Shown here in pieces: positions 28,516 to 30,648 of a stretch of DNA of 32,000 nucleotides. Below the pieces are notes generated by a model. It was not told the origin of the DNA and made no database searches. It worked only from the letters and a program-made list of their open reading frames with translations. Numbering within the stretch: the stretch's first letter is position 1; every line of letters starts with the position of its first letter. The stretch comes from Thermoproteus uzoniensis 768-20. GTDB taxonomy: Archaea; Thermoproteota; Thermoprotei; Thermoproteales; Thermoproteaceae. The position numbers and the translations under genes are program-made. Location: contig NC_015315.1 in the NCBI RefSeq assembly GCF_000193375.1, forward strand, positions 410,622-442,621. Reading direction: 5' to 3'.

Positions 28516-28910
28516 AGGCGCGGGCATCTAAATACCTATCCGGCGTTGCGGATCTCTCCGCACGGGCCGACCGCCCCACATACGGGCCCGAGCCTCATCA
28601 ACGCCTCCAGGGCGCCGCCTATGAGCAGTGTCTGCTTTGGGTTTCTGCTCCACATCTCAAGGCCTTAAGCGCAATCACGGTCCTCGCGTAGTCCGCCTCC
28701 CGTCCTCCCTCCGCGTCGGCGTATATGGCTACGTATCCTCTAGTAGCGCCGCCTCTGGTCTTGAAAATCTCGCTTCCCTCCGATCTCCCGCCCCTTCTCC
28801 ACGGCGACTTTCACTACTAGTCCCTCCTCTTGCCCTCTCACTCCGCGCCCGTCTCGACGCGCGCTCTCGACGTCCGGCCATCGACCCCTCGAGGGGAGCT
28901 AAGCGAGGAA

Positions 28911-28922
28911 AAAGCTTAAAAA
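28911..28922 (+). promoter_or_regulatory. tRNA promoter (BRE/TATA) AAAGCTTAAAAA
   Basis: The same 12-mer recurs at 29348-29359, and as AAAGCTTAAAAC at 30414-30425. The G of GCTT is exactly 29 nt upstream of the first nucleotide of tRNA-Trp and tRNA-Val, and 27-28 nt upstream for tRNA-Ile. Confidence 0.75.
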
Positions 28923-28942
28923 CTACTAACAATATACGTAAA

Positions 28943-29049
28943 GGGCCCGTAGCTCAGCAAGGCAGAGCGGCGGAGGTGAACGCCGCCGTGGCTCCAGACC
29001 CGTAGGGCGGGGGTTCAGGCGTAGCCGCCTAAAAATCCCTCCGGGCCCA
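28943..29049 (+). tRNA. tRNA-Trp (anticodon CCA at 28994-28996) with two intron-like insertions
   Basis: Hand-folded cloverleaf: acceptor GGGCCCG/CGGGCCC, D arm GCTC..GAGC, anticodon stem GCGG[17-nt insert 28974-28990]G / CCCGT, loop CTCCAGA, and T arm GGGGG-TTCA[16-nt insert 29018-29033]AAT-CCCTC. The discriminator is A and CCA is encoded at 29050-29052. Confidence 0.8.
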
Positions 29050-29116
29050 CCAAGCCTCTATTGCTATATACTGAACTAACGACGTCTTCCGCACTAAGGT
29101 CGGCAGAATTTTATGG

Positions 29117-29238
29117 TGCCCCGGCCGGGATTTCTGGGCGGAGCTTCCCTGAACCCGGGTCCTGGGCTCTCTCCGGCGTTCCTCGAAAGGCCCATATCCG
29201 TAGTCGGCGAGCCTTTGACCGGGCTAGACGACCGGGGC
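29117..29238 (-). tRNA. tRNA-Glu (anticodon TTC; plus-strand GAA at 29185-29187) with three intron-like insertions
   Basis: Minus strand reads GCCCCGG TC GTCT AGCCCGGTCAA AGGC T [15 nt] TGGGC CTTTCG [15 nt] A GCCCA GGAC CCGGG TTCA [17 nt] AAT CCCGG CCGGGGC A CCA. Inserts lie at 29195-29209, 29169-29183 and 29133-29149. The minus-strand TATA AAAGATATAAAAATT (29258-29272) is about 30 nt upstream. Confidence 0.8.
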
Positions 29239-29257
29239 CTAAACGCCGTAAATCCTC

Positions 29258-29272
29258 AATTTTTATATCTTT
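29258..29272 (-). promoter_or_regulatory. TATA element for the minus-strand tRNA-Glu
   Basis: AAAGATATAAAAATT on the minus strand, about 30 nt upstream of tRNA position 1 (29238). Confidence 0.6.
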
Positions 29273-29347
29273 GTCGCCTTGCGGCCAGCGGCGCCCGCGC
29301 CGATTGTTGACGCTCGCGCTCGGCGGCCCGGCTAAGTACGGTAGGGC

Positions 29348-29359
29348 AAAGCTTAAAAA
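29348..29359 (+). promoter_or_regulatory. tRNA promoter AAAGCTTAAAAA (tRNA-Val)
   Basis: Identical 12-mer and identical spacing to the tRNA-Trp promoter. Confidence 0.75.
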
Positions 29360-29379
29360 TATGTTGAAATATATGTAAA

Positions 29380-29512
29380 GGGCCCGTAGTCTAGCGGTAG
29401 GATTGAAAGCCGTTCCCTAAAGCCCGCCTTACACGGCGCCCGCGCCACAGCGCCTGAGCGCGCGGGAGATCCCGGGTTCGGGCGTAGCCGCCTAGAAATC
29501 CCGGCGGGCCCA
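29380..29512 (+). tRNA. tRNA-Val (anticodon TAC at 29430-29432) with three intron-like insertions
   Basis: Acceptor GGGCCCG/CGGGCCC; D arm GTCT AGCGGTA GGAT; an 18-nt insert within 29404-29422; anticodon stem CCCGC/GCGGG with loop CTTACA[27-nt canonical 37/38 intron 29434-29460]C; T arm CCGGG-TTCG[16-nt insert 29481-29496]AAT-CCCGG. CCA is encoded. Confidence 0.8.
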
Positions 29513-29653
29513 CCAAGCCTCTTTCCGCCGATAGGCCGGGACCTGTCCGTGAGGCTCTATAAGCCGGCCTTCAACATGCCAGCACGCTGGCCGCCTTCCC
29601 CAGATGCGCCTCGGCTACCCTCCGTGGGCAGCCGACGTGGCTACCCATCCTAT

Positions 29654-30046
29654 TTAGACGAACTGCACGATGTCCGCAAGCTCGCCCCTCTTCAGCGCCT
29701 TTTCCAGTTCCTTCTCTCGCATGAAGAGGGCGCGCGTGTTCAGCCTCCGTGCTAGGGCGATTGTATAGCAGTCCGGGAGCGATATTGCGTGTCTGCATTT
29801 GCACATGGCGGCCTCTCCGTGGAGGTCGGCGGCTGGGTAGGGCCTAAGCGTCCTGCTGTTGAGCAACCTCTCCACGGCTCTGCGCGCGGCCTCTGCGCCG
29901 AGTCTACGGCATAGGACGTACATGACCTCTGTTAGGTTGTACTCTGTTATGTAGAGCCGCCAGCCCCTCTTTGCGTATTCCAGCAAGGCGTCTGTGGTCC
30001 CCTCTAGAGTCGCGAGAACTACGCTTGTGTCAACCGCCAGCCTCAT
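29654..30046 (-). CDS. vapC: PIN-domain toxin VapC
   Basis: 130 aa. MRLAVDTSVV supplies the first acidic residue, YITEYNLTEV the second, and ISLPDCYTIALA the third. Confidence 0.8.
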   Translation of the reverse strand: MRLAVDTSVVLATLEGTTDALLEYAKRGWRLYITEYNLTEVMYVLCRRLGAEAARRAVERLLNSRTLRPYPAADLHGEAAMCKCRHAISLPDCYTIALARRLNTRALFMREKELEKALKRGELADIVQFV

Positions 30047-30293
30047 CCTCGGACCGCCCTCTCCTGAGCTCCGCGGTGAGTTCGCCGGGCTTGACCAAGC
30101 GCCGCACCTCCGCCAGCACAGCCGCCAGCTCCTCGACGTCGGGGCTCTCGGCGCTGTCTAGGAGGTAGCTGATGGCCTCGTCAAGCGACACCTTGCGCCC
30201 CAGCTTGGCTTCCAGCCTAGCTCTGAACTGTATTAGGCGGCGCTTCGTATCCTCCCTTATCTTGATGGATTCCACATTTTCTACATCTTCCAC
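30030..30293 (-). CDS. vapB: VapB-type antitoxin (UPF0330/COG1753-like)
   Basis: It overlaps the vapC start by 17 nt. SIKIREDTKRRLIQFRARLEAKLGRKVSLDEAISYLL resembles the TI.I.d.vy.rL...K..geSfsdvI.rLl family pattern. The real start may be the GTG at 30277, given the TATA AAATTTAATTA at 30297-30307. Confidence 0.7.
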   Translation of the reverse strand: MEDVENVESIKIREDTKRRLIQFRARLEAKLGRKVSLDEAISYLLDSAESPDVEELAAVLAEVRRLVKPGELTAELRRGRSEDEAGG

Positions 30294-30413
30294 CTAATTA
30301 AATTTCACGTCCGTCAAAACGTAACGCCGCGTCTGACTCGCCGAAGTAGCGCTGGCCGCGAACGCCTCAGCCTAAACTACGCATCAAGCCAACGCGGGGT
30401 TTAGGTCGGTCAG

Positions 30414-30425
30414 AAAGCTTAAAAC
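30414..30425 (+). promoter_or_regulatory. tRNA promoter AAAGCTTAAAAC (tRNA-Ile)
   Basis: Same motif as the two other plus-strand tRNA promoters, with similar spacing to the tRNA 5' end. Confidence 0.7.
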
Positions 30426-30443
30426 CAACTGTGTTTGGAGGGA

Positions 30444-30552
30444 TCGGGCCGTAGCTTAGCTAGGTGGAGCGCCCGTGGAGATCCGGCGAGGCTGATAAAG
30501 GGCTCCCGGCCCGAGCAACCGGGAGGTCCCGGGTTCAAATCCCGGCGGCCCC
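30444..30552 (+). tRNA. tRNA-Ile (anticodon GAT at 30493-30495) with two intron-like insertions
   Basis: (C)GGGCCG TA GCTT AGCTAGGTG GAGC G CCCG[15 nt 30475-30489]G CTGATA[20 nt 30497-30516]A CCGGG AGGTC CCGGG TTCAAAT CCCGG CGGCCCC A CCA. The T loop is uninterrupted. Position 1 is ambiguous (see findings). Confidence 0.7.
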
Positions 30553-30648
30553 ACCACTTCCTCTGAAGATCTGCGTTGATTGTCCCGCCATGCCGAATTG
30601 GCGGGAGAGCTCTGTGGAGACGCCGGGTCAAAAACTGGGTTTGGGAGA

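Follow-up and report, generated by a model that had tools for sequence, protein, structure and literature searches.

The window analyzed here, a stretch of 32,000 nucleotides from the hot-spring archaeon Thermoproteus uzoniensis 768-20 (NC_015315.1, positions 410,622 to 442,621), contains four neighbouring tRNA genes that are broken up by short insertions. Are these insertions introns of working genes, where exactly do they begin and end, and how did they come to be there? The initial annotation, made from the sequence alone, had counted two insertions in the Trp gene, three each in the Glu and Val genes and two in the Ile gene, with lengths of 15-27 nt. All ten were present at the indicated places, and the counts and sizes were right (15, 15, 15, 16, 16, 17, 17, 18, 20 and 27 nt).

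We used our own predictor, which lists bulge-helix-bulge (BHB) candidates and rates how well the product left after splicing fits a cloverleaf (maximum score about 34). In all four genes, the sequence that remains without the inserts forms a canonical cloverleaf in which the anticodon loop and the T loop have 7 nt each. The spliced Trp, Glu and Val products scored 33, and the Ile product scored 31 once both the insert at 30476-30490 and a 20-nt stretch of the anticodon loop (30498-30517) were deleted. ARAGORN accepted all four spliced products, as Trp-cca, Glu-ttc, Val-tac and Ile-gat. The insertions fall into five position classes, 21/22, 25/26, 30/31, 37/38 and 56/57. Four classes had been proposed originally; the assignments to 30/31 and 37/38 and that of the first Val insertion to the place between D stem and anticodon stem (here 25/26) stood, whereas the first Glu insertion and the T-loop insertions had to be shifted, to 21/22 and 56/57. 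We consider it highly probable (about 93%) that the four loci are functional single-copy tRNA genes with two to three protein-spliced, BHB-type mini-introns each, and we infer that these are excised in RNA (Table 1).

Table 1. Interrupted tRNA genes, their introns and upstream boxes (positions are those of the window).
Feature	Position	Strand	Remarks
tRNA-Trp(CCA) gene	28943..29052	+	CCA encoded; sole Trp tRNA gene of the genome
Trp intron 1	28974..28990	+	17 nt, 30/31, strict BHB
Trp intron 2	29017..29032	+	16 nt, T loop 56/57, relaxed HBh'
tRNA-Glu(UUC) gene	29114..29238	-	CCA encoded
Glu intron 1	29200..29214	-	15 nt, between last D-loop base A21 and G22, relaxed HBh'
Glu intron 2	29169..29183	-	15 nt, canonical 37/38, strict BHB
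Glu intron 3	29134..29150	-	17 nt, T loop 56/57, relaxed HBh'
tRNA-Val(UAC) gene	29380..29515	+	CCA encoded
Val intron 1	29404..29421	+	18 nt, 25/26, strict BHB
Val intron 2	29434..29460	+	27 nt, 37/38, strict BHB; outer and inner helices 5 bp each
Val intron 3	29480..29495	+	16 nt, T loop 56/57, relaxed HBh'
tRNA-Ile(GAU) gene	30445..30556	+	CCA encoded; position 1 is C, facing C72
Ile intron 1	30476..30490	+	15 nt, 30/31, strict BHB
Ile intron 2	30498..30517	+	20 nt, anticodon loop, 37/38 by homology; no canonical BHB
AAGCTTAAAA promoter-like box	28912..28921	+	21 nt upstream of Trp gene; putative promoter
ATATAAAAATT TATA-like box	29258..29268	-	upstream of Glu gene, read from sequence; putative promoter
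AAGCTTAAAA promoter-like box	29349..29358	+	upstream of Val gene; putative promoter
AAGCTTAAAA promoter-like box	30415..30424	+	upstream of Ile gene; putative promoter

A strict BHB motif (hBHBh', with both cuts in 3-nt bulges and a 4-bp helix between them) was found at five of the ten insertions. Four further insertions carry the relaxed HBh' form (HBh' and hBH motifs have one bulge with flanking helices), exactly at the boundaries that restore the cloverleaf. As a stand-alone test, strict motifs show no excess (1-2 per gene versus 0.6-1.0 in dinucleotide shuffles), and relaxed HBh' motifs are frequent by chance (9-22 matches per gene versus 10-13 in shuffles). The motifs count as support only because they fall precisely where cloverleaf and orthologues put the boundaries. 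The 37/38 intron of the Ile gene has a degenerate motif, with a central helix of 2 bp versus 3 bp in the tRNA-CAU paralogues; at this site, the central helix of the Ile orthologue in genome G003 is a perfect 4 bp (CTGA/TCGG). By cloverleaf alone, the register of the Ile gene, and hence its anticodon, is ambiguous, since AGC, GGC, GAC and GAT all score 31. An Ile model built from BHB motifs only was wrong (score 22), and a motif-free deletion search was required.

In orthologous tRNAs of related genomes, a comparison that the initial annotation had proposed, the exons are the same and the inserts are present or absent. Exons are kept among Trp, Glu and Val orthologues that carry between zero and three introns. 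The Trp orthologue in G002 is intron-less and matches the predicted spliced product at 72 of 74 bases. Across the eight same-genus genomes in which the gene was found, mature Glu-UUC differs by no more than one base, in the D loop, and the sets of introns vary. Because congeners keep the same exons with fewer introns or none, the exon boundaries are independently confirmed.

The introns themselves are not of one age. Four of them are old and occur across the order, namely both introns of Ile, the one at 37/38 in Val and the one at 30/31 in Trp. An intron occupies the Ile 30/31 site in all ten aligned orthologues, and the Val 37/38 intron is present in every Val-UAC orthologue examined, as the only intron in G001 and G002. 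The Trp 30/31 intron is present in G001, G005, G008, G033, G037 and G038 and absent from G002 and G004. The Glu 37/38 intron is lacking in G002, G003, G004, G009 and G011. Only close relatives of the species share the Val 25/26 intron and the three T-loop introns at 56/57. The former is missing from Val-UAC of G001, G002, G004, G010, G013 and G019. The Trp 56/57 intron is absent from G001, G002, G033, G037 and G038, and the Glu 56/57 intron was found in G000 and G005 only, among 11 genomes compared. Val-UAC of G008 and G013 has an unrelated 17-nt intron at 53/54 in place of the one at 56/57.

Within one genus, the Trp gene thus occurs with zero, one or two introns and the Glu gene with one, two or three, in four combinations; G002 has none in Trp and one each in Glu and Val. 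Because orthologues differ in the introns they carry, the locus records intron gain, for whose study it had been thought suitable from the start. We suggest, tentatively, that the locus and its orthologues may capture successive stages of intron turnover in one genus, as a natural time series.

The introns fall into position-specific sequence families that are common to different tRNA genes and were gained at different times. Such families were found at 56/57 (Trp, Val, Pro, Arg; seven genes altogether, including Trp intron 2), 25/26 (Val, Ala), 30/31 (Trp, Lys-CUU) and 37/38 (Ile, tRNA-CAU). The Trp 30/31 intron is identical at 16 of 17 positions to that of tRNA-Lys(CUU), the Glu 56/57 intron at 15 of 17 to that of tRNA-Pro(GGG), and the Val 56/57 intron at 15 of 16 to that of Pro-UGG and at 14 of 16 to that of Trp. 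The Val 25/26 intron recurs without change (18/18) in Val-GAC and Val-CAC, and Ile intron 2 is identical (20/20) to the intron of a tRNA-CAU gene at G000:1629470-1629584. In the pairs of different isotypes named here, intron identity is at least 80% (14/16 to 20/20). In part of these cases (the three Val genes, and Trp with Lys-CUU) the flanking exons are identical as well, and the sharing may reflect gene conversion rather than transposition.

The families that emerge from genome-wide comparison are not the ones expected from the 8-mer GAACGCCG, to which the initial annotation had drawn attention in a Trp and a Glu insert. The quoted inserts and the match between them are exact, but a match of this kind is at chance level, arising in 17-21% of shuffled intron sets (P 0.17-0.21). 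The orthologous introns in G008 do not keep the 8-mer, and it otherwise occurs only in Lys-CUU, in the copy of the Trp intron there. We therefore rejected it as a family marker.

A rival reading of the local accumulation is that gene conversion between neighbours carried the 56/57 intron from one to another of the three adjacent genes. Three of the seven 56/57 introns of the genome lie within 0.6 kb, and Trp and Val have in common not only 14 of 16 intron bases, but also the acceptor 3' strand, the CCA and the trailer AGCCTCT. However, the intron of Glu is nearest to that of distant Pro-GGG and not to those of its neighbours, and the intron of Val is nearest to that of distant Pro-UGG. The Glu intron was gained after those of Trp and Val, because G008 is without it. 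Moreover, a run of four consecutive genes with at least ten introns arises in 9% of shuffles. The case for proximity-driven spread is weak, and we regard it as unlikely.

Very improbable, in our view, is the original placement of two kinds of boundary, which put the first Glu insertion between D stem and anticodon stem (with AGGC as the 3' strand of the D stem) and the T-loop insertions after position 57. AGGC can also pair with GTCT, so that a formal cloverleaf results under either Glu model. Yet the Glu genes of G001 and G007, which are without intron 1, read contiguously GTCT-AGCCCGG(T/A)CAA-GGAT-A-TGGGC. This contradicts the original model and puts the insertion at the junction of D loop and D stem, 21/22. 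An HBh' motif for this intron exists in the 21/22 register only. In the T loops of Trp and Glu, the 56/57 and 57/58 registers yield identical mature sequences. In Val, the 57/58 register would read TTCGAAT, and 56/57 alone gives TTCAAAT, the loop found in Val-GAC and Val-CAC of the same genome and in the orthologues of G001, G004 and G008. As the Val T loop is TTCGAAT in the orthologues of G002, G010, G013 and G019, the 56/57 register of Val rests mainly on the HBh' motif and the close relatives. We placed the T-loop insertions at 56/57.

That the loci are decaying pseudogenes filled with junk is effectively refuted: ARAGORN detects none of the four unspliced genes of the window, the Rfam tRNA model at its gathering score detects only Ile, and the first acceptor pair of Ile is a C1-C72 mismatch, but the 99.9%-complete genome, a single contig, has no other genes for these four tRNAs (Trp-CCA, Glu-UUC, Val-UAC, Ile-GAU), near-identical exons occur in the orthologues with variation confined to the inserts, promoter-like boxes and the encoded CCA are kept in all four, and none of the four anticodon arms recurs in the genome as a contiguous, intron-less copy. 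The initial annotation had coupled this possibility to orthologues without the insertions; the orthologues do vary, but with conserved exons and no second copies the loci are not pseudogenes.

Functional, intron-bearing genes call for a splicing machinery. By sequence similarity, the genome encodes both predicted subunits of a broad-specificity (alpha-beta)2 splicing endonuclease, an alpha subunit of 182 aa (L021:1237-1785, E 2.4e-83 to PDB 2ZYZ chain B) and a beta subunit of 96 aa (L101:1480-1770, E 2.1e-39 to 2ZYZ chain A), as well as the ligase RtcB (G000:620709-622019). The AAGCTTAAAA box and leader are also found ahead of many other tRNA genes of the genome. From known biochemistry, each gene would be transcribed from its own TATA-like box. 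The heterotetrameric (alpha-beta)2 endonuclease would then cut at the two 3-nt bulges flanking a 4-bp helix, and at half-motif sites (HBh') in the relaxed form. RtcB would join the exons, and the CCA tail is already encoded in the genes. A search for sequencing runs yielded none with RNA of this organism. Hot-spring metagenome contigs aligned to the stretch contained no splice joints, and one metatranscriptome contig carries the Ile gene unspliced. Apparent splice joints in aligned contigs turned out to come from contigs of paralogous tRNAs and not from splicing.

The density of introns within 1.6 kb had appeared striking at first sight. By the shuffle test above and the genome average, it is not exceptional. 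We counted 46 tRNA genes with about 61 introns, or about 1.33 introns per gene, where the D-loop introns of Gln, Gly-GCC and Asp, not placeable by cloverleaf alone, were each counted as one. The 46 expected tRNAs (44 anticodons, with CAU three times) are each encoded by exactly one gene. ARAGORN recognizes all 46 spliced tRNAs versus 16 of the unspliced genes, and a genome-wide Rfam search missed 6 of the 46. Published genomes reach a ratio of 1.54 introns to each tRNA gene, and single tRNA genes of Asgard archaea have up to five. In Thermoproteus tenax, of the same genus, 48 introns were reported in 46 tRNAs (Plagens et al. 2015, PMC4731332), compared with about 61 here, and its two-subunit endonuclease cuts BHB motifs in vitro (same study).

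The value of the result is chiefly that of a warning and of a data resource. These genes mostly escape standard tRNA finders, and spurious ORFs are called over them. Congeners with differing introns in identical exons are a good data set on archaeal tRNA intron gain. Should the spread of the 56/57 family be continuing in the lineage, near-identical genomes could show how intron DNA enters archaeal tRNA genes. Such entry might proceed by gene conversion, with paralogues of matching exons as donors, or by reverse splicing.

The expectation of multiple, mostly non-canonical introns of the Thermoproteales type was borne out. The phenomenon, the positions and the sequence families are already known for this order (Sugahara 2008, Fujishima 2010) and not unusual for the present genome. 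Multiple BHB introns, and non-canonical ones, were described in Thermoproteales tRNA genes by Sugahara et al. (2007, 2008), as summarized in two reviews (PMC4090602, PMC4033280). The same reviews list introns at 25/26, 30/31, 37/38 and 56/57, with a maximum of three per gene, and describe the strict BHB, HBh' and hBH motifs, the (alpha-beta)2 host endonuclease and intron families across isotypes. Fujishima 2010, as cited elsewhere (PMC4033280; bioRxiv 10.64898/2026.10.13.758758), agrees with the present picture. We found no difference in kind from the reviewed introns. As in the transposed intron families of Thermoproteales, near-identical introns occupy the same position in different isotypes here. 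The Glu D-loop site is 21/22 here versus 20/21 and 22/23 in the reviews, which may be a difference in numbering only. Pyrobaculum islandicum tRNA-Pro(UGG) has introns at 25/26, 37/38 and 56/57, exactly the set of Val-UAC in the window.

The genome of T. uzoniensis 768-20 is a single contig of 1,936,063 bp (59.7% G+C). Interval 28,9xx-30,6xx of the window holds four tRNA genes. Between the third and the fourth lie a gene for a PIN-domain (VapC-like) protein and, upstream of it, a small ORF. The PIN-domain gene (130 aa, Pfam E 4.7e-10) is preceded and overlapped by this 87-aa ORF, which has no Pfam match, and the pair has a vapBC-like appearance. ARAGORN called no tRNA genes in the window, and Rfam reported the Ile gene alone at the gathering score and Trp solely in E-value mode. 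We rely on a custom predictor, which enumerates bulge-helix-bulge (BHB) candidates (outer helix, 4-bp central helix, two 3-nt bulges, inner helix), cuts after the second base of each bulge, also allows the relaxed forms HBh' and hBH, and assigns a cloverleaf score to the product of each set of removals (three or four at most). Intron coordinates were checked again against the window sequence. Once spliced in silico, all four genes were accepted by ARAGORN, each with the anticodon expected.

Features of the tRNA locus and of other sites in the genome (window coordinates, or contig coordinates where marked C1; strict, hBHBh')
Feature	Coordinates	Strand	Intron position	Length	Motif
Trp(CCA)	28943..29052	+	30/31	17 nt	strict
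Trp(CCA)			56/57	16 nt	HBh'
Glu(UUC)	29114..29238	-	D-loop/D-stem junction	15 nt	HBh'
Glu(UUC)			37/38	15 nt	strict
Glu(UUC)			56/57	17 nt	HBh'
Val(UAC)	29380..29515	+	25/26	18 nt	strict
Val(UAC)			37/38	27 nt	strict
Val(UAC)	29480-29495		56/57	16 nt	HBh'
Ile(GAU)	30445..30556	+	30/31	15 nt	strict
Ile(GAU)			anticodon loop	20 nt	canonical motif absent
PIN-domain gene	29654-30046	-
87-aa ORF	30030-30293	-
Putative promoter/leader block	28909-28942
Putative promoter/leader block	29346-29379
Ile segment in X23 contig	30446-30553
Thg1-like protein	C1:352661-352951
Glu-CUC, Asp-GUC	C1:590737-591103
Pro-CGG	C1:1407835
Weak Rfam tRNA match	C1:1748480-1748542	-

The predictor reproduced the insertion counts of the initial annotation for Trp (2), Glu (3) and Val (3), with cloverleaf scores of 33 of about 34. 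A strict or HBh' motif was present at nine insertions, the exception being the 20-nt insert of Ile, which lacks a canonical motif, so that it took a deletion search independent of motifs to find it (score 31). Dinucleotide shuffles of these G+C-rich genes yielded 0.6-1.0 strict motifs each and abundant relaxed ones. BHB motifs alone are thus weaker evidence than their appearance suggests, and their weight lies in exact coincidence with boundaries fixed independently by orthologues.

For this comparison 40 related genomes were searched, more stretches were fetched, and the same predictor was applied (genomes are denoted by G numbers). Trp-CCA of G002 is intron-free and differs from the predicted spliced RNA at 2 of 74 bases. 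The 30/31 intron alone is present in G001, G033, G037 and G038, the T-loop intron alone in G004 and G021, and both in G005 and G008. Glu-UUC exons are identical, or differ by at most one D-loop base, in the 8 same-genus genomes in which the gene was found. Three Glu introns occur in T. uzoniensis and G005, D-loop and 37/38 introns in G008, 37/38 and 59/60 introns in G001, the 37/38 intron only in G007, and the D-loop intron only in G002, G003, G004, G009 and G011. Since ...CAA GGAT A TGGGC is the reading in Glu genes that lack the D-loop intron, the boundary is 21/22, which excludes the earlier placement between D stem and anticodon stem. With two boundary corrections, the initial observation is confirmed.

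Val-UAC has three introns in T. uzoniensis, G005 and G008, the 37/38 intron only in G001, G002, G010 and G019, 29/30 and 37/38 introns in G004, and 37/38 and T-arm introns in G013. The T-arm intron of G008 and G013 (loci L003 and L011) is 17 nt long and lies at 53/54 (AGGG....CCCCGGGAA); the 56/57 intron of T. uzoniensis and G005 is unrelated to it in sequence, which means that either one intron replaced the other or the arm gained an intron on two separate occasions. Both Ile-GAU introns were present in all 10 aligned orthologues, one of them from another family of the order. The cloverleaf alone cannot fix the anticodon-loop register or the anticodon of Ile; the 37/38 register and GAU are supported by G003, where this intron has a perfect 4-bp central helix (CTGA/TCGG).

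No other gene serves any of the four anticodons, and a genome search for intron-less copies of the four anticodon arms found none; the loci are therefore not pseudogenes.

A census of the whole genome from Rfam matches, paralogue searches and the predictor gave 46 tRNA genes, one per expected anticodon with three for CAU, and about 61 introns (none in 7 genes, one in 20, two in 16, three in 3, Arg-CCU being the third three-intron gene). The commonest positions were 37/38, 30/31, 56/57 (7 genes), 25/26, 29/30, 45/46, 51/52, 59/60, the D loop and 3/4. ARAGORN recognised all 46 spliced products with the expected anticodon, versus 16 unspliced. The Rfam search gave 41 matches, 40 belonging to real genes; the six genes missed (Trp, Glu-UUC, Val-UAC, Thr-CGU, Pro-UGG, Pro-GGG) all have a T-loop intron. 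One weak Rfam match (23 bits) shows a good T arm and an anticodon arm resembling GUG, lacks both an acceptable D arm and acceptor stem, and may be a tRNA-His-like remnant or fragment.

A total of at least 10 introns in four random genes has P = 0.002, but 9% of shuffles contain some four neighbouring genes that together attain this number. Because the run was chosen after it had been seen, the density described as striking is not remarkable, and the initial interpretation is only partly supported. Nor does the 8-mer common to Trp and Glu inserts point to kinship: chance gives it in 17-21% of shuffled sets, and it is absent from the orthologous introns of G008. Sequence families do exist. Among the 56/57 introns, those of Trp, Val-UAC, Pro-UGG, Arg-UCG and Arg-CCG have pairwise identities of mostly 81-94% (75% for Trp against either Arg), and a second subgroup comprises those of Glu-UUC and Pro-GGG (15/17). 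The 30/31 introns of Trp and Lys-CUU match at 16 of 17 positions; all three Val genes carry one and the same 25/26 intron, with close versions in two Ala genes. The 37/38 introns of Ile and one tRNA-CAU gene are identical (20/20), the central helix having two pairs in Ile and three in tRNA-CAU. The adjoining Glu-CUC and Asp-GUC genes carry long 3/4 introns within the acceptor stem (38 and 48 nt, 75% identity).

The genome encodes RtcB and both splicing endonuclease subunits, catalytic alpha (182 aa, E 2.4e-83 to PDB 2ZYZ chain B) and short structural beta (96 aa, E 2.1e-39 to chain A), which make up the heterotetrameric crenarchaeal enzyme. This enzyme reportedly cleaves relaxed motifs anywhere in pre-tRNA (PMC4090602, PMC4033280, PMC4731332) and would excise these introns. 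An 851-nt contig from run X23, a metatranscriptome whose label reads hypersaline lake, agrees at every base with the unspliced Ile gene and may stem from DNA carry-over, a precursor RNA or a mislabelled sample.

In Thermoproteales, positions 25/26, 30/31, 37/38 and 56/57, at most three introns per tRNA gene and near-identical introns across isotypes have been published, and the three intron positions of Val-UAC recur in P. islandicum tRNA-Pro(UGG) (PMC4090602, PMC4033280). T. tenax is reported to have 48 introns in 46 tRNAs (PMC4731332); the 1.33 introns per gene found here lie within the published range. Multi-intron tRNA genes are already known; what remains of interest is how introns turn over among congeners, together with two oddities noted alongside.

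At least 10 tRNA genes whose acceptor stem is GGGCC(C/G)G have in common a putative promoter and leader block of ~32 nt (AAAGCTTAAAAA, 8-9 nt, GAAATATATGTAAA), in the window at 28909-28942 and 29346-29379, and Trp and Val-UAC have the trailer AGCCTCT 3' of the encoded CCA. In two single-copy tRNAs, Ile-GAU and Pro-CGG, C1 stands opposite C72 (CGGGCCG/CGGCCCC); Pro-UGG, Pro-GGG and one tRNA-CAU have the same stem with G1. Template-dependent 5' repair is conceivable, since the genome encodes a Thg1-like protein. The Ile gene begins with G1 in G008 and G003, and with C1 only in T. uzoniensis and G005.
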